Below the pieces are notes generated by a model that had not been told where the DNA came from, did not search any database, and saw only the letters and a program-made list of their open reading frames with translations. From Planctomycetota bacterium (GTDB taxonomy: Bacteria > Planctomycetota > B15-G4), in assembly GCA_038212275.1 (NCBI GenBank), contig JBBQUR010000003.1, positions 1 to 64,000 on the forward strand: a stretch of DNA of 64,000 nt, in the 5' to 3' direction. The position numbers were made by a program, and so were the translations under genes. Shown here piece by piece: positions 30,942 through 45,909 of the stretch; positions within the stretch are counted from its first letter, which is position 1, and every line of letters begins with the position of its first letter.

Positions 30942-31844
30942 ATGCGTCTCACCACGCCGCTTTCGCGCCTGTCGTCCCTCGTCGTCCTCGGCAGCCTTCT
31001 CGCCGGCAGCGGCTGCGTCCTGCACCTCGGCAACTGGTCGGACGACTCCTCGGAGATCTTCGGGCACAGCGTGTCCGGGCACGACGGCGTCCTGACCGTG
31101 GATGGAACGCGGCTGCCGTTCAATCGCTGGGTCGACATGTCGGCCGAGTATGCGGGCACGGAGACGCTGGAGCTCGGCACGGCATCGGATGCGATCCGCG
31201 TGAGCGGCGTCCCTGGCTCGACCGTCACGCTGAGGGCCCGGCTCTACAGCGAGATCGAGGGCGACGGCACGGCAGTCCTCGAACACGGCCGGCTGGTTGC
31301 CCGAAGCCAGGGCGGCGGCAAGGTGTTCATCAATGCCATCGAGGGCACGGTACCGGAAGGCACCGCGCTCAACGTGCGGAGCGGCACCGGTGAGATCGAG
31401 GTCTCGGCGCTTGCCGGCGAGGCCGCCCTCTCCATGTCCGACGGCACAGGCACGATGACACTGCACGACTGCACGGCGGGACCGATCATGCTCGACGGCG
31501 GCACGGGCGACTCGCACGTCCAGCGCATCGTGGCCGGCACCGTGAACGCCCACAGCGGCACGGGAGACGTCGTCATCGAGGATCTCACCGCCACCCTGGT
31601 GGGCATCGAGATCGGCACCGGCGACGTCAGCCTGGCGCGCTGCCATGCGACCAGGATCACGCTGGATGCCGGCACCGGCGACACGTCGATGACAGGCTGC
31701 GAGGCCGGCGTCCTGAAGTGCGAGAGCGGCACGGGCGACCTCGTGCTGGACGGCGGCAAGTACGAGGACGTGCGCTTCAGCAGCGGCACCGGCGATCTCA
31801 CGCAGCACAACAGCGTGGCCATCGGCAGCCTCAAGGTGGACTGA
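30942..31844 (+). CDS. DUF4097-type beta-strand-repeat (adhesin-like) lipoprotein
   Basis: Lipobox GSGC; eight xGTG(D/E/T) repeats about 19-21 aa apart. Confidence 0.8.
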   Translation: MRLTTPLSRLSSLVVLGSLLAGSGCVLHLGNWSDDSSEIFGHSVSGHDGVLTVDGTRLPFNRWVDMSAEYAGTETLELGTASDAIRVSGVPGSTVTLRARLYSEIEGDGTAVLEHGRLVARSQGGGKVFINAIEGTVPEGTALNVRSGTGEIEVSALAGEAALSMSDGTGTMTLHDCTAGPIMLDGGTGDSHVQRIVAGTVNAHSGTGDVVIEDLTATLVGIEIGTGDVSLARCHATRITLDAGTGDTSMTGCEAGVLKCESGTGDLVLDGGKYEDVRFSSGTGDLTQHNSVAIGSLKVD

Positions 31845-31972
31845 CGCTCCAGACGGGGGCTCGCGGAGACGATCCCGTCGAGGCCTCCGGGCATCGCGGA
31901 GACCGACGTGCGGCGCAGCACTGAGCAACGCCCTGCGCGCACAGCTTCCGTGAGACGAAACGCCTCGGCGGT

Positions 31973-32725
31973 TCAGCCTTGCGCGGCGTCGAGGGCTTCG
32001 ACGAGGAGCGCGGCCAGCACGGCATACGTGGCGTGCCCCTCGGCGGCCGTGGCCTCCGCGGGGCTGCCGAAGTACGCACGCGTGCCGCCGGCCTTCAGGA
32101 AGTCGTCGCGTCCGGCCGCGATCGCCTCGACGAGGCTGATCGTCACCGGCGGCAGCGAGGCGGCGACGTCTGACTTCACCGCGTCCGGATCGTCGGCCAG
32201 CACGAGCGAGCCTTCGTAGCGGCCCGCGTGGCAGGCGCCGCTGCGGAACTCATCGGTCAGGCGCTCCGCGCTGCGGCGCCGCGTGACGTCCGGAAACGCG
32301 ATGACCGCGCCGGTCTCGGTGGTGACGGCCTCACACGCAAGCTTCAAGCTCGCGATGTGCGCCGGCTCGAGGTGCCCGTTCGCGAGGGCCACCGGCGCGA
32401 AGCCGGCGCGCACGACGCCGACGAGCACGTCGCGCACCAGTGCAATGGCGGTGTCGCGGCGCACCGAGAGCGTGCCCGGAAACGGCGCCGCGTAATCCGT
32501 CACGGAGTACGTCACGGGAGGCAGCACCACGCAGGCACGTCCCTCCGCACGCAACCTCTCCGCCGCGCGCGTCGCCATGCCCAGCGCGATGGTGACATCG
32601 GTGTCCAGCGGCAGGTGCGGGCCGTGCGCCTCCGTGGAACCCACCGGGAGGATCGCCGCACAGCCGCCCGGCCGCGCGAGCAGCGCCGCGACGTCGGTGT
32701 AGGAGAGCTTGGCGAAGTCGGTCAC
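31973..32725 (-). CDS. Creatininase-family amidohydrolase
   Basis: LPVGSTEAHGPHLPLDTD, NGHLE, CHAGRYE; GTG start overlaps the ligase stop (GTGA). Confidence 0.9.
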   Translation of the reverse strand: MTDFAKLSYTDVAALLARPGGCAAILPVGSTEAHGPHLPLDTDVTIALGMATRAAERLRAEGRACVVLPPVTYSVTDYAAPFPGTLSVRRDTAIALVRDVLVGVVRAGFAPVALANGHLEPAHIASLKLACEAVTTETGAVIAFPDVTRRRSAERLTDEFRSGACHAGRYEGSLVLADDPDAVKSDVAASLPPVTISLVEAIAAGRDDFLKAGGTRAYFGSPAEATAAEGHATYAVLAALLVEALDAAQG

Positions 32726-34365
32726 GCGTCCTGCCGCGCCTTGAGGGTCTTGCGATCCACCTTGCCGCGATCGCTCTTCGGCAGCTCGTCGAGGAACTCG
32801 ATCCAGCGCGGGTATTTGTAGACGGCGAGCCTGCTCTTGACCCATTCCTGAAGCGCGTGGGAGAGCGCGTGCGTCGCGGCGACGTCCTTCGGCGCGTGGC
32901 CGGGGCGCAGCACGACGAAGGCCTTGGGCTTCACGAGATCGTCCTTGTCGCGCCAGCCGACGACGGCGGCCTCGGCCACGGCCTCGTGCTCCAGCAGGCA
33001 GCCCTCGATCTCGTGCGGCGCGCACCACACGCCGCCCACCTTGAGCAGCTCGTCGGCGCGGCCCTCGTAGAAGAAGTAGCCGTCCGCGTCCACGCGGAAC
33101 ATGTCGCCCGTGACGACGAGGTCACCGGCGAAGGTCTCCTTGGATTTCTCGTGCGCCTGCCAGTAGCAGAGCGCGGAGGACTCGCCGCGCACCTGCAGCC
33201 GCCCGACCTGGCCCGCGGGCACCGGCCTGCCGTCCGGATCCACGACGGAACACTCGTAGCCGGGCACCGCCTGCCCGAGGCTGCCGACGCGCACCGCGCC
33301 GGGCCGGTTGCTGATGTGGATGTGGAAGAGCTCCGCGCTCCCGATGCCGTCGAGGATCTCCACGCCGCAGCGCGCCAGCCACTGCTTCTGCAGCGCCTCG
33401 GGCAGCTTCTCGCCGGCGGAGAGCACGAGGCGCACGCTCGAGAGGTCGCGTGCGCCGCCCTCGGCCTCCAGCGCGAGCATCTTGCCGATCATCGTCGGCA
33501 CGGAGGTGAGGATGGTGGGGCGGTAGCGCTCGACGACGTCGAAAATGGTCTCCGGAGTGCTGCGCTCGCTGAACAGCGCGGTGCTCGCGCCGACCGCGAA
33601 GGGGAACATGAGGTTGGTGCCCGTCGCATAGCCGAAGAAGAGCTTGGGCACGCCGGCCGTCACGTCGTCCTCGCGGATGCCGAGCACCTGCTTTGCGTAG
33701 GTCTCGACGTTGAAGGCGAAGTCCTCGTGGAAGTGCACTGCGGCCTTGGGCTTGCCGGTGCTGCCGGAGGTGAAGAGCCAGCCGGCGATGTCGTGGAGGT
33801 GCGTGTCCTCCATGACCGGCGTGTGCGGCGCGTGCGCGACGAGGTCGAGCAGCGCGTGCTGTCCGGCCTCGACGTGCGGCCGCGTGCGGCTGGTCTCGCC
33901 GCCCGCGACGATCACGGCGCGCAGGTGCCGCGCCGAGCGCGCCAGCCGCGCGAACATCGGCGCAAGGCTCTCGTCCACGACGGCGATGCGGGCCCGCGTG
34001 TACTCCAGGTAGTAGGCGTAGTCCTCCTCGACGAGCTGCGTGTTCACCATGGCGAAGACCGCGCCGCACTTGAGCGTCGCGAACCACGCGTGGCAGAACT
34101 CCGGCCGGTCGGAGACCGCGATGAGCACGCGTTCCTCCATGCGCAGACCGAGCTCGCGGAAGGCGTGTGCCAACCGGTTGCTCGCCGCGGAGAGTCCCGC
34201 ATAGGTGTGGTTCTCGTCGCGCCAGCGCAGCGCGACCTTCTCGGCGCGGCCCGCCTCGAGATTGTGTTCGAGCAGGTAGTGCGCGAGGTTGAAGCGCTCG
34301 GGGAAGGCGGGCAGCGCGGGTGCGGCCGATGCCGCAGGCGTGCGTGGCGCGTCGGGCCGGGTCAT
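32722..34365 (-). CDS. Benzoate-CoA ligase family protein, probably anthranilate (2-aminobenzoate)-CoA ligase
   Basis: PERFNLA, WLFTSGSTGKPKAAVH, PKLFFGYATG, ILDGIGSAE, EGRADELLKVGG, PKSDRGKVDR; specificity inferred from context. Confidence 0.85.
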   Translation of the reverse strand: MTRPDAPRTPAASAAPALPAFPERFNLAHYLLEHNLEAGRAEKVALRWRDENHTYAGLSAASNRLAHAFRELGLRMEERVLIAVSDRPEFCHAWFATLKCGAVFAMVNTQLVEEDYAYYLEYTRARIAVVDESLAPMFARLARSARHLRAVIVAGGETSRTRPHVEAGQHALLDLVAHAPHTPVMEDTHLHDIAGWLFTSGSTGKPKAAVHFHEDFAFNVETYAKQVLGIREDDVTAGVPKLFFGYATGTNLMFPFAVGASTALFSERSTPETIFDVVERYRPTILTSVPTMIGKMLALEAEGGARDLSSVRLVLSAGEKLPEALQKQWLARCGVEILDGIGSAELFHIHISNRPGAVRVGSLGQAVPGYECSVVDPDGRPVPAGQVGRLQVRGESSALCYWQAHEKSKETFAGDLVVTGDMFRVDADGYFFYEGRADELLKVGGVWCAPHEIEGCLLEHEAVAEAAVVGWRDKDDLVKPKAFVVLRPGHAPKDVAATHALSHALQEWVKSRLAVYKYPRWIEFLDELPKSDRGKVDRKTLKARQDA

Positions 34366-34366
34366 C

Positions 34367-35206
34367 TCAGGCCTCCAGCACCGTGCGGACGGCCCACAGG
34401 TCGGGCAAGGCCTGACGCGAGAGCGTGGTGAGCAGGTAGCGGATGCCGTCCAGGTCTCCGGTGACGCCCTTGCCGGTGCCGGGCTTCGCGCCGATCTGCC
34501 GCTCGACCATCATGATGTGGTGCCGGCGCCAGAGCACGAGCTGCTCGTCGATGTCCACGAGCGCCTCGCACAGGTCGTAGAGCGCGGGGTGATCGTCGGG
34601 CTGCTCGTAGATGCGACGCAACGCGTCGAGCGAGGCGTTCTTCTGCGCTTCGGTGCGGTGATCGTCCGGCGGCGTGACGGTGAAGCCGCGCGCGCGCAGC
34701 AGGCGGTAGAGCGCGTCGGGAATCGTGTCGCCGTCGAAGCGCGCCTGCAGCGCGGCGATGCGCGGGTCGCTTTCGACGCGGCGGACGAGGTCCGCATCCT
34801 TGAGGCCCATGAGGCACTCGACCTCGCGGAATTGCGCCGACTGGAAACCGCTGGCCGGGTTGAGCTGCGCGCGGAAGTCCAGGAAGTCCGCGGGGCGCAT
34901 CGACTCCAGCACGTGGATCTGCTGCACGAGCACCTTGAAGATGGACTCCACGCGCTTCAGCAGGCGCGTGGCCGTGCGCAGCGGCGTGTCGTCCTCGGTC
35001 TCGGCGGCGGCATCGAGCGCGGCCTTCACGGCATCCAGTTCATGCAGGACGAGCTTGAACCACAGCTCGTAGACCTGATGCACGATGATGAACTGCAGCT
35101 CGTCGTGCGCCGGCGGGTTGGCCAGGGTGTGCTGAAGGCGGAGCAGCTCCGGCACCTTGAGGTAGACGGAGTAGCTGACGCGCGCGTCCTTGCCGTAGTC
35201 GGTCAC
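34367..35206 (-). CDS. kynA: Tryptophan 2,3-dioxygenase
   Basis: YSVYLKVPELLRLQ, HDELQFIIVHQVYELWFK, PASGFQSAQFREVE, WRRHHIMMVERQIGAKPGTG. Confidence 0.95.
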   Translation of the reverse strand: MTDYGKDARVSYSVYLKVPELLRLQHTLANPPAHDELQFIIVHQVYELWFKLVLHELDAVKAALDAAAETEDDTPLRTATRLLKRVESIFKVLVQQIHVLESMRPADFLDFRAQLNPASGFQSAQFREVECLMGLKDADLVRRVESDPRIAALQARFDGDTIPDALYRLLRARGFTVTPPDDHRTEAQKNASLDALRRIYEQPDDHPALYDLCEALVDIDEQLVLWRRHHIMMVERQIGAKPGTGKGVTGDLDGIRYLLTTLSRQALPDLWAVRTVLEA

Positions 35207-35265
35207 ATCGGTTCTCGCGGGGAGGCAGAACCGACGTTGTCGCCCCGCGCCGCGGGGGCTGTCAA
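35207..35265 (-). promoter_or_regulatory. Candidate sigma-70 promoter and leader hairpin of kynA
   Basis: Minus strand: TTGACA (35265-35260), 18 nt, GACAAC, then hairpin TCGGTTCT...AGAACCGA next to the GTG start. Confidence 0.4.
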
Positions 35266-35279
35266 GGAGCGCTCACGCC

Positions 35280-36575
35280 TCACGGGCCGGTCGGGTAGAT
35301 GTACTCTCCGTTCGGCAGCACGAGCCACGTCTTCTGCTCGGGGTCGTTCTTCCACTTCGCCGCTTCGGCCAGGCCTTCGGCCGTGCATGCGGGGAGGCCC
35401 AGCATCTTGCCGGCGATGAGCATCGAACGCACCTCCCACGGTCCCAGATACGACTCCGTCACGATGCCTGCGGGCGTCAGGTCGTACCAGGTCGCGACCT
35501 TGTCCACCGTGCACGCCTTGCCGGGCACGAGCGATTGCAGCAGCGCCAGCTTCTGCGACTGGACCTTGAGGGCGACGATGATCGCCTGCTGGTATTCCCC
35601 GGGCGGCATGATCACGGCCAGGTCGAAGAGCGCCGGCATCGCCCAGCAGACGGAGTTGTAGACCTGCAGTTCGCCGCCCTTGCTCGGGTCGTTCGACGGC
35701 GGCGTGCTCCAGTGCGGGAGGAGACGCGACCAGATGTAGTCGCCGATGGTCTGCGCGTCGGCCATGTCGATGCTGCCGACCTTCAGCGCCGCGACCACGT
35801 TGCCCACGAGGTACCGCGCCGCGCGATCGCTGACGACGTAGGGCGTGAGCGCGCCGTTGGCGTTGCGCAACATGCCGGCGTGAGCGGCCATGAGGCTGCG
35901 CACCATGGCGCGCGCGACCTCGTTGGAGGGGAGGCCGCCGGAGAAGCCGGGCGTCGCCGTCGAGTAGCCGTTGCTGCGCGCGACCGCGATCAGCGGCGAG
36001 AGGGCGAAGTGCTCGAGGTCGAAGCCCGACACGGCCACGCCGGCGACCAGCTGGGAACCATCGGGCAGGGCACCCGCTTCGAGATCCGGCAACCAGTCGA
36101 TCGGCCGGCAGCCGACGACGTAGCTCGTGAACCGCGCCGGCGCGTGCTCGTAGTAGGCCGGCCGCGCGCCGTAGTTGGCCACGACAGCACGGATCCAATC
36201 CGGCGTGAGGAGATGGTCATGGCGCCATCCATAGGCCGACTGTCCGCCCGTGTCCGACGCCGTGACGTGCATGCCGCCGAGGGTCCACGCGAGCGACCCG
36301 GTCGGAATGCCCTGCGCGAGTGACAGCGCGCTGAAGGTCGGATTGATCGAAGTCCATGTTGTTGCCGAGCCCGCACTCGAAGCGCCCGGATTCTGCGCGT
36401 TGAGATCGACGACGGTGAGCGCAACCGCCGCGATGAGCGTCATCCCGAGACCTGAGCGGCGCAGCAGAGCGGATCCCGCGCGCTGCATCCGTTTCGCTTT
36501 GCTCACCCATGATGGGCCGGCTGCCACCAAGTTCATTGCACTCTGATGGTCTGTTCGACGCCGGTCATTGGTCAT
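35280..36575 (-). CDS. Hypothetical, probably secreted protein with no family recognised
   Basis: Long ORF with GC3 bias in its 3' two-thirds, signal-like MTLIAAVALTVVDLNA-Q; start uncertain. Confidence 0.65.
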   Translation of the reverse strand: MTNDRRRTDHQSAMNLVAAGPSWVSKAKRMQRAGSALLRRSGLGMTLIAAVALTVVDLNAQNPGASSAGSATTWTSINPTFSALSLAQGIPTGSLAWTLGGMHVTASDTGGQSAYGWRHDHLLTPDWIRAVVANYGARPAYYEHAPARFTSYVVGCRPIDWLPDLEAGALPDGSQLVAGVAVSGFDLEHFALSPLIAVARSNGYSTATPGFSGGLPSNEVARAMVRSLMAAHAGMLRNANGALTPYVVSDRAARYLVGNVVAALKVGSIDMADAQTIGDYIWSRLLPHWSTPPSNDPSKGGELQVYNSVCWAMPALFDLAVIMPPGEYQQAIIVALKVQSQKLALLQSLVPGKACTVDKVATWYDLTPAGIVTESYLGPWEVRSMLIAGKMLGLPACTAEGLAEAAKWKNDPEQKTWLVLPNGEYIYPTGP

Positions 36576-36717
36576 GGTGCTACCGCCAGAGGTGCCTGTC
36601 GAATTCGTGACGCGCGGTAAACAACGAAGGCTGCGCAAGGGTGCGTGACAAAAAAATCTGCTGAGGCACTCGACCCGCAGTCACGCACCTGAAGCGAGCG
36701 CATGCGTCGATGCGTCC

Positions 36718-39700
36718 TCAGTCTCTCCGCAGCGCGACGAGCCGGAACGCTGCTGGGGCGGCTCCCTCCGCGAGGCGGAAGGCGATGCTGCCAGAAGTCG
36801 CAGCGGCATCCGTGAGAGCGGCCGTCTCCACGCCGTTGAGGACGACGCGCAGCTGCGCCCCGCGCGCCTCGATGAGCAGGTGGTTCCAGCTCGCGCGCGC
36901 CAGCTCCGGGCGCCACATCGCGCTGTCCGATGCGACCCGCGTGCCGGTGCCTTCGTCGCTCAGCGAGCCCCACGACTCGCCGCCGATCTCGACGAGCTCG
37001 CCCACGGAACCCGCACCATGGGGCGCGGCCTCCGCACACCGCACGGCAATACCTCCGCTGCCGTCGTGAAGCAGCACCTCGCACTCGAAGCAGAAGTCGC
37101 CGGTGACGAAGGGCGAGACCAGCGATGTCCCGGCCGGGACGCCGTCGCCTGGCGCGCTGTCGACTGGCGCGCTGTCGACCGGCGCGCTGTTGACCGGCGC
37201 GCTGTTGACCGGCGCGTTGGCCATCGGCGCGTTGGCGAGCGGCTCGCAGAGCAGCACGCCGCCTCTCGCGGACCAGATCCCTGCATCGCCTCGCCAACCG
37301 CCGAGTCCCTCGGTGAAGAGCGGCTCCCAGGCGGATCGCTCGGGCGGCGCGACTGCCTCGGCCGCCAGCAGGCAGGCGGCCAGGTCAGCGATCGCTCGCA
37401 GCGACCAGCCGTCCAGGAGTCCCTCGGGCATGGCCGAGGCACGCGAAAGGCGCCGTTCGTCGATCTCGGCCGTGGGCACGCGGACCGTCTCGCCGGTCGA
37501 GGTGAGCAGCTGCACCGACGCTCCGTCGTCGCGCAGCAGCAGTCCCTGCACGACGCGCCCGTCCTTCGTGAACACCTGCGTGGAGCGGTACTGGTCCGAG
37601 ATGTCGCGCGAGGGATCCATGATCGCCGTGAGCAGGTCGGACAGTCCGAGCCGCGAGCCCACCGAGGACAGGTCCGGGCCGCCGGCATGCCCGCGCCCGC
37701 CGCGCACATGGCACGCGGCGCAGGACTGGCTGAAGACGAAGGCTCCCTCCGAAGCGGAGCGTTCCGGCGCATCGAGCGCATTGCGGACGAAGGCCAGCGT
37801 GCGCGGCAGGTCGCGCCTCGGCGCATCGTGCGCGATGCGGATCGTCGTCGCGTGATCCGGCTCGGCGCTGCCTGCGTGCGCCTCGTCGCGCAGCGCCTCG
37901 CGCGCCTCGGCGGGCGCCGCGTCGAGCAGCCGGCGCTCGATCGCGTCGAGGTAGCCCTGGTAACTCGCGCCGCCGGGGCGGCTGCGGAGCGTCGTGAGTC
38001 GTGCCAGCGCGGCGCGCGTCCGTGCCGCGTCGGCGCCGGAGCGCAGCGACGACAGGCAGAGCAGCAGGTGGGCGGCTTCCTCCGGCGAGTCCTCGTCGTC
38101 CAGCGCGGCGAGCAGAGCATCGCGCGCGCCCTCCGGTTCCGTGCGTGCCAGCAGCGCGGCCAGCTCGCGGTCGAGCTCCGGCGATCCGGACGGAAAGTGG
38201 GGCAGCAGCGCCGCGCCGAGCGCGGGATCGGGCGGCTGATCCTCACCGGCCAGGGTGTCGGGCACGCCGACGAGCAGTGACAGCTCGAGTGCCCGGGCCG
38301 CGATCAGCCGCGTGGGCGTCGGAAGCTCGGGGGCGAGCAGAGTCAGCGACAGCGCGCGGCAGCGCGAGGTCGGCGGCGCCGCCGATGAGGAGCCGTCGGC
38401 CTTCCCGGCCGCCGCATCGCGAAGCTCCTGCCGGGCCAGGACCACGAGCGCCTCGGCGCGCACCGCAGCACGCGGGTCGGCGCTCGCCACGCCCTCCACC
38501 TCCGCGACGGGCCGGTGCTCGAGCGCCCGCGCCGCGAGATGGCGCACCACTCGGTCGGGGCTCTCCAGGGCGTCGGCCAGCGCGTCGAGCGGCGTCGCCG
38601 TCGTGAACACCGGTGCGCGCGCGGCGGCGACGAAGCGCGTTGCGCCCGCGGCTGCGGCAGCTTCCGGCGCAGCGGAGGTCGCGACCTGTTCCGGCGCTCG
38701 CGCGGGGTCGGCGCGCAGCCGCAGCAGCGCACCCTGCGTGCCACGTCCACCCACGGACAGGAGCAGAGCGCCGCCGGCCTCGAAGGCCAGGTCCGTGACC
38801 GGCATCGGACGACCGGACAGCAGCACTTCGGAGCGGCCGCGAGAGCTGCAGCCATCCGGCGACAGGTGCACGGCGAGCACCTTGCCTTGCGACCAGTCGC
38901 ACAGCAGCAGAGTGTCCTTCCAGCGCGGCCCGAGTGCCGCCGAGTCGCACCACAGCACGCCGGTCGGCGAACCACGGCCCGTCTCGAGCACGGGCGGCAG
39001 CGAGTCCGGATACCACGCGGGCCATTTGGCGGAGCCCGTGCGCCAGCCGTAGTCGCCGCCTGGCAGCACGTGCACGACGCGCACCGCGCGGTACCACGGC
39101 AGGCCGATGTCCCACTCCATGTCGGAGTCGAAGGTGAAGAGGTCACCGGACGGGGAGAAGGCAAGGTCGTAGGCGTTGCGATAGCCGGCGGAGAACAACT
39201 CGAAGCGACCGGTCTGCATGTCGTACGAGAAGATCGTGCCGCCGGGCGCGGTGACCTCGTTGGCGTGACCGTTCGGGTCGAGCAGGCGCGGAATGACGGC
39301 GCCCTCGTACACGAGTCTGTACGGCGAGGACTCCGCAGCCGGCGCACCGAGTCTCACGTGGTTGCCGAGCGTGAGCCACAGCCGCCCGTCGGGGCCGGGC
39401 AGCACGGCGTGCGGTCCGTGCTCGCCGGCCGAACCGGTGATCGGTGCGACGAGATGCGCGTGGCGCGGCCCGTCGTCGGCGGGCAGCCGGTAGAAGCCGA
39501 GGCCGTCGGGGCCGATGCCGGTGGCCCACGCCTCGTCGCCGACGAAGCACAGACCCTGGCAGGCGCGCAGTTCGTCGCAGAAGACGGTGCTGCGCTCGTA
39601 GCGGCCGTCGCCGTCGTCGTCGTGCAGCGCGAGCAGGCCGCCGCTCTCAACGGAGACGACGGGCTCGCCGCGCGGGCTCATCGTGAAGGCGATGAGCGAG

Positions 39701-43204: not shown

Positions 43205-44500
43205 TCAGTACACCGCTCCACCCGTCGCGTGCTTCTGCCACGCGCCGCTCGCCAGGATCTCGCACACCGCGTCGAGGCAGGCGTCCATTTCGTCGTCGGT
43301 GTTGTAGTAGTGGGGGGCGATGCGCAGGCCGACGTCGGGGCGGCTGTCCACCAGGATGTCGCGCTCGGCGAGCGCTTTCACCACGGCGGGGGCGTGCGGG
43401 ACGGTGAGTGTCACCGTGCCGCCGCGGCGCGCGGGGTCCTGCGGCGAGCGCGAGGCGAGACCGCGCTCGGCGGCGCGCTGCAGGAATCGCGTCGTCTGCG
43501 CGACGCTCTTGCGGCGGATCGCGTCGACGCCGGCGCGCAGCACCATCTCGTAGCCGGAGCGCGCGGCGTAGTAGGCCGGCACGGCGGGCGAGCCGTGCAG
43601 GAAGCGCGTCGCATCGGCGGCGTACTTCTGCGGGCCCTTCTCGAAGGCGAAGGGGTGCTCGTGCGCCATCCACCCGGTGAGCATCGGCTCGAAATGGTCG
43701 CGAATGCCCGGCTTCACGTAGAGGTATCCCGCGCCGGGGCCGCCGCAGAGCCACTTCACGGAGCCGCCGCAGGCCATGTCCACATCGAGCGCGCGCACGC
43801 TGAACGGCACCGTGCCCGTGGACTGGTAGCAGTCCGCCAGCACGAGCGCGCCGACGGCGTGCGCCTTCTTCACGATGGCAGCCAGGTCCTGGATGAAGGC
43901 GCTCTGGAACAGCACGTGCGACACCGGGACGATGAGCGTGCGCTCGTCGATCGCGTCGAGCAGCGCCTGCGTGTCGACGCCGATGCCGTCGGCCGACGGC
44001 ACGCAGACGATCTCCGCGCCGCGGCGCCGCTGCGCCTCCCACACGTACATCACGGAAGGGAAGTTCAGGTCCGTGTAGACGACGCGGTTGCGCGGCGCCT
44101 TGAACTCCAGGCACGACGCGACGAGGCCCTGGATCACCGAGACATTCTGGTGCATGACGATGCTGCCCGCGGGCGCGTCGATGATCTGCGCGAGCAGATT
44201 GCCGACGTCCACCGGCGAGGTCCACCAGCCCTCGGCCCAGGCGCGGATGCCGCGCGTGGCCCACATCTCGGCGTACTCGTGCAGCCGGTCGTACGTCGCG
44301 CGCGGCATCGCGCCGAGCGAGTGATTCACCAGGTAGTTCGTCGTCTCGAGGATCGGGAACTCGGAGCGCAGCGCGAGCAGCCGCGCGAGCTCATTGGCGG
44401 CGGGCGCGTTGGTGGTGGCGGGGCCCGTGCCCGGGCCGGCGCTCGAACCGGCGGCGGGGCCCGGCGCGGAGCGAGGTGCGGAACCTGGGGCGGTACTCAT
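43205..44500 (-). CDS. kynU: Kynureninase-like class V PLP enzyme
   Basis: YLVNHSLGAMP, W..RGIRAW..GWW, NFPS, SHV, DCYQS.G, GGSVKWLCGGPG, GWMAHEHPFAF, RFLHGSP; ATG overlaps pepP stop. Confidence 0.75.
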   Translation of the reverse strand: MSTAPGSAPRSAPGPAAGSSAGPGTGPATTNAPAANELARLLALRSEFPILETTNYLVNHSLGAMPRATYDRLHEYAEMWATRGIRAWAEGWWTSPVDVGNLLAQIIDAPAGSIVMHQNVSVIQGLVASCLEFKAPRNRVVYTDLNFPSVMYVWEAQRRRGAEIVCVPSADGIGVDTQALLDAIDERTLIVPVSHVLFQSAFIQDLAAIVKKAHAVGALVLADCYQSTGTVPFSVRALDVDMACGGSVKWLCGGPGAGYLYVKPGIRDHFEPMLTGWMAHEHPFAFEKGPQKYAADATRFLHGSPAVPAYYAARSGYEMVLRAGVDAIRRKSVAQTTRFLQRAAERGLASRSPQDPARRGGTVTLTVPHAPAVVKALAERDILVDSRPDVGLRIAPHYYNTDDEMDACLDAVCEILASGAWQKHATGGAVY

Positions 44501-45909
44501 GCGCGTGCTCCCAGTCGTGCGTGGCCCGCGCTCATCGCGGAGGCACTCGAGCCGGCGTGGCTTGCGGCGGAGGCGCCCGACGTGTCCGCAGCGCCGCCGT
44601 GCAGCGCCTCCACGTCCGCGATGCTCTTCGGGATGTCTTTCGTCAGCACGTCGTTGCCCTCCGCGGTGACCAGCACGTCGTCCTCGATGCGGATGCCGAT
44701 GCCGCGGAATGCCGCCGGCGCGGCCTCGTCGTCGGCATTCACGTAGAGCCCGGGCTCCACGGTGAGGACCATGCCGGGCTGCAGCGGGCGGCTCTGCTTG
44801 CTGCCGTCGGCGGCGGTGATGAAGTACGTACCCACGTCGTGCACGTCCAGGCCGAGCCAGTGCGAGGTGCGGTGCATGTAGAATCGCTTGTAGCTGCCGC
44901 TGGCCAGCGCCTCCTCGACGCTGCCCGTGAGCAGTCCCAGCGAGATGAGTCCTTCGATGAGCACGCGCGTGGAGGTGTCGTGCACCGACACGAAGGAGCG
45001 GCCGGGCAGGGCCGCGGCGATTCCGGCGAGCTGCGAGGCCAGCACGATCTCGTACAGGGCGCGCTGCGGCGCCGAGAAACGGCCGCTGGCCGGTGCGCAG
45101 CGCGTGACGTCCGCGGTGTAGCCGTCGCACTCGGCGCCCGCGTCCACCAGCAGGCACGAGCCCTTGCCGACGCGCTCGTTGTTGGTGTTGTAGTGCAGCA
45201 CCGTGGCGTTGGCGCCGGCGGCGACGATGCTCGGATATCCGACGCCCCAGCCGCCTCCCGCGCGGAAGGCGCCGTCGATGAGAGCTTCCAGTTCCCACTC
45301 GCCGCAGCCCTCGCGCACGGCCGACATCGCCGCGCGATGGCCGCGGTTGGTCAGCTCGGCGCAGCGCCGCAGGGCCGCAATTTCCTCGGACGACTTGAAA
45401 AGGCGCAACTCGTGCAACGCGACCCCGGCCTCGACCAGCTCGGGCGGCCCGGTGACGCCGTCGCGCGTGCGCATGAACATCTCGTGCAGCCAGCCGAGCA
45501 GCTTGCGGTCGAAGTCGCTGTCGTGGCCGGTGGTGAAGTGGAGGCGCGACGCACCACGCAACAGCTTCGGAAGTTCCGTGTCGAGCGCAGCGATCGGGTA
45601 CGCCGCGTCCGCGCCGTACAGCTCCTTCGCTCCCTCGACGCCGGTGCGCCGGCCGTTCCACGTCTCCATCTCCGGGTCGCGCGGCCGCACGAAGAGCACG
45701 TAGCTGTCCTTGACGGCGTCCGGGATCAGCACCGCCACGGCATCGGGCTCGCGCAGTCCGGTCAGGTACCAGAAGTCGCTGTCGGGGCGGAAGCGGTAGT
45801 GCGTGTCGCGATTGCGGATGCGCTCCGGACCGGCGCGGAAGATCGCGACGCCGCCGTTCATCCTCGCCATGAGGGCCTCGCGGTGCGCCTTCGCCATCTG
45901 CTGGTTCAC
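44497..45909 (-). CDS. pepP: Xaa-Pro aminopeptidase (aminopeptidase P)
   Basis: RNRDTHYRFRPDSDFWYLTG, LHY, LVDAGAE..YTADVTR, HRTSHWLGLDVHD, TVEPGLY, GIRIEDD. Confidence 0.93.
   Translation of the reverse strand: MNQQMAKAHREALMARMNGGVAIFRAGPERIRNRDTHYRFRPDSDFWYLTGLREPDAVAVLIPDAVKDSYVLFVRPRDPEMETWNGRRTGVEGAKELYGADAAYPIAALDTELPKLLRGASRLHFTTGHDSDFDRKLLGWLHEMFMRTRDGVTGPPELVEAGVALHELRLFKSSEEIAALRRCAELTNRGHRAAMSAVREGCGEWELEALIDGAFRAGGGWGVGYPSIVAAGANATVLHYNTNNERVGKGSCLLVDAGAECDGYTADVTRCAPASGRFSAPQRALYEIVLASQLAGIAAALPGRSFVSVHDTSTRVLIEGLISLGLLTGSVEEALASGSYKRFYMHRTSHWLGLDVHDVGTYFITAADGSKQSRPLQPGMVLTVEPGLYVNADDEAAPAAFRGIGIRIEDDVLVTAEGNDVLTKDIPKSIADVEALHGGAADTSGASAASHAGSSASAMSAGHARLGARA

Follow-up and report, generated by a model that had tools for sequence, protein, structure and literature searches.

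A 64,000-nt stretch of a Planctomycetota genome (GenBank assembly GCA_038212275.1, contig JBBQUR010000003.1; 72% G+C), referred to here as the window, carries three minus-strand genes that fill positions 31973–35206 exactly: kynA, an aryl-CoA ligase gene, and a gene of the creatininase family, whose subfamily we call crea. An earlier note on this DNA had suggested that the creatininase-family gene is a non-orthologous formamidase of tryptophan catabolism, and comparative genomics supports that suggestion. On this sequence-based evidence, we put at roughly 0.7 the probability that crea encodes a metal-dependent formamide hydrolase that takes the place of KynB, an unrelated enzyme of cyclase fold, in tryptophan catabolism.

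Genes at the locus

Open reading frames (ORFs) of the window were filtered by third-position G+C content and then scanned against Pfam and NCBIfam. The first gene of the group, kynA (34367–35206), encodes a tryptophan 2,3-dioxygenase of the short bacterial type (279 aa; PF03301, 6e-54, 184 bits). It scores 215 bits on TIGR03036, under the cutoff of 391, and is the only kynA found in the 4.65-Mb assembly. Its TGA stop is followed, after one base, by the ATG of the ligase gene (32722–34365; 547 aa; PF00501 and PF13193), and the ligase stop overlaps the start of crea (31973–32725; 250 aa) as GTGA. The head-to-tail packing described in the earlier note can thus be read directly in the sequence. 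The ligase reaches 516 bits on TIGR02262, the benzoate-CoA ligase family (cutoff 375). Its best match among solved structures is 4wv3, “Anthranilate-CoA ligase” (403 bits), and benzoate-CoA ligases follow at 377 and 359 bits. By sequence likeness, the enzyme is most likely an anthranilate (2-aminobenzoate)-CoA ligase.

The kynureninase gene that had been placed 8 kb away is also there. This gene, kynU (43205–44500, minus strand; 431 aa; PF00266 plus PF22580 KYNU_C on the long ORF; ATG at 44500), lies 8.0 kb upstream of kynA, in the same orientation, and is 45%–56% identical to kynU-like genes in four loci of other genomes that carry crea (L007, L040, L041, and L057). Elsewhere, the assembly (4.65 Mb in 40 contigs, 91.1% complete) completes an aerobic 2-aminobenzoyl-CoA set, consisting of the anthranilate-type ligase and ACMR, a 2-aminobenzoyl-CoA monooxygenase/reductase-like fusion of an FAD monooxygenase with an OYE-type reductase. 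The ACMR homolog (C19:47418–49946) is 52%–57% identical over both domains. It and the other lower-pathway genes, which encode a short-chain dehydrogenase/reductase (SDR), an enoyl-CoA hydratase (ECH), and an acyl-CoA dehydrogenase (ACAD) on contig C26, lie on contigs other than that of the window.

A cyclase-family kynB had been reported missing from the window, and the same holds for the genome: PF04199 has 0 matches in the window or in the 4.65 Mb of the assembly, and TIGR03035 has none in the assembly at E ≤ 1e-30. Because the anthranilate pathway is joined here to kynA and kynU, tryptophan is its likely feed and a formamidase is needed. Since the genome has kynA, kynU, the ligase, and ACMR but no PF04199 or TIGR03035 match, we assign the missing step to crea as a candidate.

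The creatininase-family protein

The crea product matches PF02633 over profile positions 2–238 of 238, with 167 bits against a cutoff of 31.3 (168 bits in the genome scan). In the Pfam scan, it matches this family only and not the cyclase domain PF04199. Its motifs TEAHGPHLPLDTD, NGHLE, and CHAGRYE align to residues of Pseudomonas putida creatininase that bind metal or act in catalysis. In the profile alignment, creatininase residues E34, H36, D45, H120, E122, and H178 correspond to crea E32, H34, D43, H118, E120, and H166, and E171 is conserved as well, with H166 aligned as catalytic. Across 62 members of the subfamily, the ligands are invariant but for E120, found in at least 90% of them. 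The earlier statement that the metal ligands look intact therefore stands, both in the named motifs and across the subfamily.

The substrate side of the site is different. Creatininase Y121 faces L119 of crea, W154 faces P145, and W174/D175 fall in a two-residue deletion of the profile alignment. We take Y121, W154, and W174 to be substrate-pocket residues of creatininase, mutants of which exist as PDB entries. An AlphaFold2 model of crea (pLDDT 97.5, pTM 0.94) retrieved creatininase-family chains in all top 25 Foldseek matches, with TM scores up to 0.78 at 22%–24% identity, and P. putida creatininase is the best solved relative of the subfamily profile (72 bits). Judged from the model and the alignment, crea is predicted to be an intact creatininase-fold metallohydrolase with a different substrate pocket. 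Its close relatives, many of them from Planctomycetota metagenome-assembled genomes (MAGs), are mostly unnamed or labeled “creatinine amidohydrolase.”

Three named functions of the family were considered for crea and rejected. The mycofactocin peptidase MftE (TIGR03964) is matched with 93.4 bits against a cutoff of 172, creatinine amidohydrolase proper (EC 3.5.2.10; TIGR04448) with 81.5 against 235, and the 3-dehydro-scyllo-inosose hydrolase IolN (NF041098) with 44.7 against 245, over part of the profile. The annotated neighbors of crea include no mycofactocin gene, either in the window or in ten loci of relatives.

Complementarity with KynB

We scanned 251 genomes of the same phylum with five queries, counting as KynB-like any TIGR03035 match at E ≤ 1e-30. 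The counts are raw. Most of the genomes are MAGs, and taxonomic families are nearly monomorphic, so kinship inflates simple statistics. The crea subfamily is sharply separated, with 43 genomes at or above 180 profile bits and every other match at or below 110. Of the 117 genomes with kynA, 43 are carriers of crea (43/43 carriers have kynA) and 74 belong to the 208 noncarriers. KynB-like genes occur in just two of the 43 kynA-bearing carriers (G078 at 143 bits and G121 at 194 bits) versus 62 of the 74 kynA-bearing noncarriers; among the 134 genomes that lack kynA, 26 have one. At the level of the 43 kynA-bearing families, 16 have crea only, 21 have KynB only, two contain a genome with both, and four have neither. 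The anti-correlation that the earlier note had asked about is therefore strong in this phylum, and a canonical KynB is not what most carriers have.

The KynB-like matches are genuine, since they directly abut kynA in at least 12 noncarriers of this phylum. Any cyclase-family gene (PF04199) is found in 13/43 kynA-bearing carriers, 66/74 kynA-bearing noncarriers, and 59/134 genomes without kynA. The 15 cyclase-family genes from 11 of the carriers score at most 142 bits on TIGR03035, 14 of them at most 81, and 16 of 20 such genes sampled from noncarriers score at least 200. The remaining four (from G139, G270, G237, and G202) are another paralog, and a further gene of 200–210 bits is present in all four genomes. 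PF04199 alone was discarded as a proxy for KynB: it also matches non-KynB paralogs, and the true KynB type scores lower on it than those paralogs do. It matched 31 of 50 carriers from other phyla. There, no top PF04199 gene of the 23 tested exceeded 90.5 bits on TIGR03035, and the 30 best PF04199 loci all lacked a kynA or kynU gene within 1.5 kb.

Two length classes of kynA are seen in this phylum. One aligns to Pfam positions 15–346 in a single piece (170–376 bits), and the other, like the copy in the window, aligns in two pieces (positions ∼15–148 and 266–346). Each is found both alongside crea and alongside KynB.

Beyond the phylum, 50 carrier genomes were taken from 80 crea loci. Of these, 47 have kynA and none has a TIGR03035 match above the cutoff of that model. 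In a second phylum (that of genome G025; 151 genomes), there are 43 carriers, two of them doubtful (the gene is interrupted by an in-frame stop in one and split in the other), and 41/43 have kynA. KynB-like genes at E ≤ 1e-30 occur in 8/41 of these carriers versus 26/42 kynA-bearing noncarriers, and matches of at least 170 bits occur in 0/41 versus 19/42. KynB abuts kynA in at least 12 noncarriers. The anti-correlation thus runs in the same direction as in the first phylum but is weaker. Co-occurrence with kynA is consistent in all three samples and amounts to 131 of the 136 carriers examined. From these comparisons, the exchange of crea and KynB very probably recurs in several bacterial phyla.

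Gene neighborhoods of the subfamily

A pattern scan limited to one genome per species yielded at least 593 confirmed relatives, of which the best 80 loci were examined. They come from Acidobacteriota, Gemmatimonadota, Planctomycetota, Myxococcota, Actinomycetota (Actinophytocola), Chloroflexota, Eisenbacteria, and others. Cultured carriers of crea include Actinophytocola algeriensis and Sorangium cellulosum So0157-2. Neighbors were identified by tblastn with genes of the window and of the loci themselves; many loci are short, and 35 extend by 8 kb or more in both directions. The ligase is the most frequent neighbor, present in 59/80 loci and within 400 bp of crea in 52. The SDR follows, with 34 of its 48 occurrences that close, and a 4HBT thioesterase is rarer but nearly always near (12 of 13 loci). 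The remaining pathway genes share the loci at a greater distance: a RidA-like gene is present in 51 loci (three within 400 bp), ECH in 50 (two), ACAD in 40 (none), ACMR in 29 (three), kynA in 25 (one), and kynU in 17 (none). In the 35 long loci, the counts are 29 for the ligase, 29 for ECH, 27 for RidA, 23 for SDR, 23 for ACAD, 19 for ACMR, 16 for kynA, and 11 for kynU. In ten loci, 133 ORFs were annotated with Pfam, which bore out the gene identities obtained by tblastn and revealed no cyclase domain.

The arrangement in the window is not due to chance, as 52 of the 80 loci, from other genomes, have a ligase homolog no more than 400 bp away from crea. Linkage to kynurenine and anthranilate genes, on which the earlier note had made its proposal depend, is thus widespread, and many loci cluster the whole pathway. 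A common layout in Gemmatimonadota has the ligase divergent from crea-SDR-RidA-ECH-ACAD-ACMR-kynA-kynU. As read from their gene content, these clusters are predicted to encode a route from tryptophan through anthranilate and 2-aminobenzoyl-CoA to ring reduction and β-oxidation-like steps, in which the formamidase would be the sole step without a known enzyme and crea the sole unexplained hydrolase.

The lower pathway also exists apart from crea. ACMR, counted where its N-terminal monooxygenase domain was covered, is present in 78 of the 251 genomes of the window's phylum, 76 of which have kynA. Thirty-six of the 78 have crea, and none of these is KynB-like positive; the other 42 lack crea, and 36 of them have a KynB-like gene. 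Likewise, a complete Gemmatimonadota chromosome (L156) places ACMR-SDR-ECH-ACAD-ligase-RidA beside kynA-kynB and has no creatininase-family gene. By this comparison, we appear to be looking at one pathway in two versions that differ in which hydrolase, crea or KynB, is present.

Proposed function and alternatives

In the route that we propose, KynA would convert L-tryptophan to N-formyl-L-kynurenine, from which crea would remove the formyl group as formate. KynU would then cleave kynurenine to anthranilate and alanine, and the adjacent ligase would activate anthranilate to 2-aminobenzoyl-CoA, to be dearomatized and degraded by ACMR and by the SDR, ECH, and ACAD enzymes. The binuclear metal site of crea would consist of E32, H34, D43, H118, and E120, with H166 and E171 as catalytic residues. 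By likeness to creatininase and to the formamide hydrolase BrbF discussed below, a metal-bridging hydroxide may attack the formyl carbonyl while H166 and E171 aid proton transfer, after which formate and the aryl amine would leave. Formamidase chemistry is plausible for crea on analogy, given that its ligands are kept, that creatininase Y121, W154, and W174 are not, and that BrbF provides a precedent. What the analysis shows directly is the gene order, the family, the conserved ligands, the fold, the conservation of the cluster, and the phyletic pattern complementary to KynB; we infer which reaction takes place, on which substrate and with which metal, and in what order the steps follow.

Not all forms of the proposal are equally probable. 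That crea is the arylformamidase of the pathway, acting on one formyl substrate or the other, seems very likely from the comparative data, an estimate that adds together the route just given and one with an altered order of steps. That it is a plain analog of KynB acting on N-formylkynurenine is moderately favored. It is unlikely that crea represents a new class of arylformamidase that changes the order, with KynU acting first and N-formylanthranilate (or its CoA ester) being deformylated alongside the ligase, a sequence in which tryptophan would reach 2-aminobenzoyl-CoA without passing through free kynurenine.

Several observations weigh against the replacement of KynB by crea. Within the window's phylum, the near monomorphism of families for crea or KynB means that Fisher-type statistics overstate the anti-correlation. 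Among the 50 carriers from other phyla, nine match TIGR03035 at E ≤ 1e-30, the best with 195 bits. The second phylum is noisier: TIGR03035 scores form a continuum there, the matches in 8/41 carriers reach 134–163 bits, and a KynB-like gene of 160 bits abuts kynA in one genome without crea. Neither enzyme is present in 16 of the 42 kynA-bearing noncarriers of that phylum, several of them single-contig assemblies and one of them unpublished (G396). A further type of formamidase therefore probably exists in that phylum, and it could also serve genomes that have crea. Conversely, kynA was not detected in 3/50 and 2/43 carriers, which are MAGs of unstated completeness. The genome of the window is 91% complete, which bounds its KynB negative, and all KynB negatives concern the cyclase type, α/β-hydrolase (eukaryotic-type) formamidases not having been searched for. 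Finally, crea is linked most tightly to the ligase and the SDR and is adjacent to kynA in a single locus of 80, a pattern that fits a role at the level of anthranilate or of a CoA ester as well as one on N-formylkynurenine.

Three rival explanations were weighed. Kynureninases can accept N-formylkynurenine, and KynU might cut it to N-formylanthranilate, leaving crea to deformylate that product or its CoA ester around the ligase step. The habit of crea of adjoining the ligase and not kynA, the usual neighbor of KynB, and the thioesterase that follows crea in 12 loci agree with such a late deformylation. Arylformamidases have been reported to take both N-formylkynurenine and N-formylanthranilate, however, and the complementarity with KynB fits the two substrates alike, while the CoA-ester version is without precedent; we regard a late position for crea as quite unlikely. 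The same neighbors could instead point further down the pathway, where crea might hydrolyze or deaminate 2-amino-5-oxocyclohex-1-ene-1-carbonyl-CoA or might, like the family member IolN, to which it has a weak match, cleave a cyclic diketone ring. Such a role would suit the position of crea at the head of the Gemmatimonadota operon and the ∼10 loci that hold crea and lower-pathway genes with no kynA within 10 kb, and the steps after ACMR are described as biochemically unsettled in a review (PMC4539516). The main argument against it comes from the two versions of the pathway. Since 36/42 genomes with ACMR and without crea are KynB-like positive, the lower pathway appears to run without crea, with KynB then filling the gap, and the L156 cluster is a full example. 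Moreover, seven carriers have kynA with no ACMR detected, no carrier in the window's phylum lacks kynA (0/43), and in the window, crea has stayed in one group with kynA and the ligase, whereas other contigs hold ACMR and the β-oxidation-like genes. A lower-pathway function is thus distinctly improbable.

A role unrelated to this pathway, such as in creatinine, mycofactocin (MftE-like), or riboflavin (BrbF/ArfB-like) metabolism, would leave shared ancestry of lineages to explain the pattern with respect to KynB. The best curated matches of crea are indeed MftE and creatininase, and the near monomorphism of families makes lineage effects real. But the equivalog cutoffs are all missed by wide margins, the substrate residues of creatininase are not kept, the ten annotated loci have no mycofactocin-type neighbors, and nearly all carriers have kynA. 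In addition, at least six phyla show clustering with kynurenine and anthranilate genes, in differing gene orders. An unrelated role is highly improbable. We therefore retain, as the preferred reading, the replacement of KynB by crea.

Relation to known systems

The kynurenine formamidase step is well known for its “missing gene,” in that many bacteria with kynA and kynU lack KynB. The likeness between crea and KynB (PF04199, TIGR03035) lies in the proposed reaction and pathway position and in both being metal-dependent hydrolases, nearly mutually exclusive in kynA-bearing genomes. They differ in that KynB has a cyclase-like fold, of a family unrelated to PF02633, and usually abuts kynA, whereas crea usually abuts the CoA ligase. 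Structures of the bacterial enzyme have been described, and the kynurenine formamidase is reported to differ between eukaryotes and prokaryotes (PMC4243253). Set beside these, the eukaryotic Afmid/Bna7 enzymes are another non-orthologous solution for the same deformylation, although as α/β-hydrolases they use a serine hydrolase fold without metal.

The archaeal enzyme ArfB belongs to PF02633 and has the creatininase fold. As described in PMC9478397, BrbF (SMc02977) of Sinorhizobium meliloti, annotated as a creatininase, deformylates the formylamino-pyrimidine AFRPP in vitro, and BrbF and archaeal ArfB are formamide hydrolases of riboflavin biosynthesis without sequence similarity to each other. 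By that description, BrbF shares with crea the creatininase annotation and the removal of a formyl group from an aromatic-ring amine and thus offers a direct precedent for formamidase chemistry in the family. Its substrate, and that of ArfB, is instead a formylamino-pyrimidine nucleotide, and both act in another pathway and gene context; crea was compared with them through this published account. Among the NCBIfam matches of the window's proteins, there is no model for BrbF/ArfB. P. putida creatinine amidohydrolase (PDB 1j2t, 1q3k, and 3a6d, among others) is the best solved relative, and all residues of its binuclear site are matched in crea. It differs in its low identity to crea and in the pocket, and no creatine or sarcosine genes lie near crea.

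The lower part of the route resembles the abm clusters of Azoarcus evansii, which encode an aerobic 2-aminobenzoyl-CoA pathway according to the review cited above (PMC4539516). A 2-aminobenzoate-CoA ligase, a monooxygenase/reductase, and β-oxidation-like enzymes recur in both; they are clustered with crea in many loci and scattered in the genome of the window. By the review's account, the Azoarcus pathway starts at anthranilate, whereas here it is joined to kynA and kynU.

A full-text literature search, with subscription journals and bioRxiv supplements outside its scope, found among the papers listed none that links the creatininase family to kynurenine or anthranilate metabolism, so the connection appears to be new to print. 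As proposed, both the fold and the reaction are already known, and the novelty lies in the function of this variant of the fold. If it is correct, hundreds of species of Planctomycetota, Gemmatimonadota, Acidobacteriota, Myxococcota, and some Actinomycetota would have a gene re-annotated from “creatinine amidohydrolase.” A further fold would be added to a step already invented more than once, and the formamidase chemistry of the creatininase family, represented by BrbF, would be extended to aromatic-amine catabolism. More broadly, the comparison shows that a complete route from tryptophan through 2-aminobenzoyl-CoA to ring reduction, clustered with a RidA-type protein, is common in poorly studied soil and sediment phyla.

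Further features of the locus and its relatives

Upstream of kynU lies a pepP-like gene for an Xaa-Pro aminopeptidase (44497–45909, minus strand; 470 aa; NF008131, 393 bits, the cutoff of 465 not being reached). The kynU start overlaps its stop as ATGA, an unusual translational coupling of peptidase and kynureninase. No pepP homolog at E ≤ 1e-10 occurs in the 80 related loci, and we treat the gene as context only for the tryptophan pathway. A 452-aa ORF of coding-like composition (35280–36638, minus strand) lies upstream of kynA on the same strand, 73 nt away. Neither Pfam nor NCBIfam matches it, the 80 loci hold no homolog, and it was excluded from the system. A consensus scan of 31500–37000 for promoters and terminators found no sites, such a scan being uninformative for this organism.

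The order ligase-crea-thioesterase, with a 4HBT_2 gene ∼120 bp or less after crea, is seen in mostly planctomycete-type loci (L005, L007, L030, L037, L039, L040, L041, L052, L054, L058, L067, and L079). The thioesterase could proofread the aryl-CoA pool. No 4HBT_2 gene follows crea in the window, and a homolog lies elsewhere in the same genome (G000 C1:319130–319543). Two odd insertions next to crea are a PF00756 “putative esterase” gene between ligase and crea in a Planctomycetales MAG (L007:4766–5998) and a gene for a PF00282 decarboxylase, dependent on pyridoxal phosphate, between kynA and crea in a Multivoradales genome (L046:7359–9911). Of the Gemmatimonadota genomes with kynA but without crea or a KynB-like gene, five were inspected (L148–L152), and kynA has no common neighbor in them; in one of the five, an Amidohydro_2 gene (PF04909) is convergent with kynA (L152:10541–11887).

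In the genome of the window, ACMR matches in two blocks ∼550 nt apart within one 911-aa open frame, which suggests an insertion between the monooxygenase and reductase domains. The same split match is seen in the relatives G155, G161, G181, G252, and G284. A second creatininase-family gene of this genome (C11:48625–49335) scores higher on PF02633 (252 bits) than crea does; it is 30% identical to crea and reaches 100 bits on the subfamily profile. The RidA/YjgF-type gene is a constant member of the ACMR clusters (for example, in L008, L015, L022, L038, and L057). Because the ACMR product is an enamine, an imine/enamine deaminase of this type is a candidate for the ammonia-releasing step of the aerobic 2-aminobenzoyl-CoA pathway, and the genome of the window carries such a gene as well (G000 C7:107708–108106).

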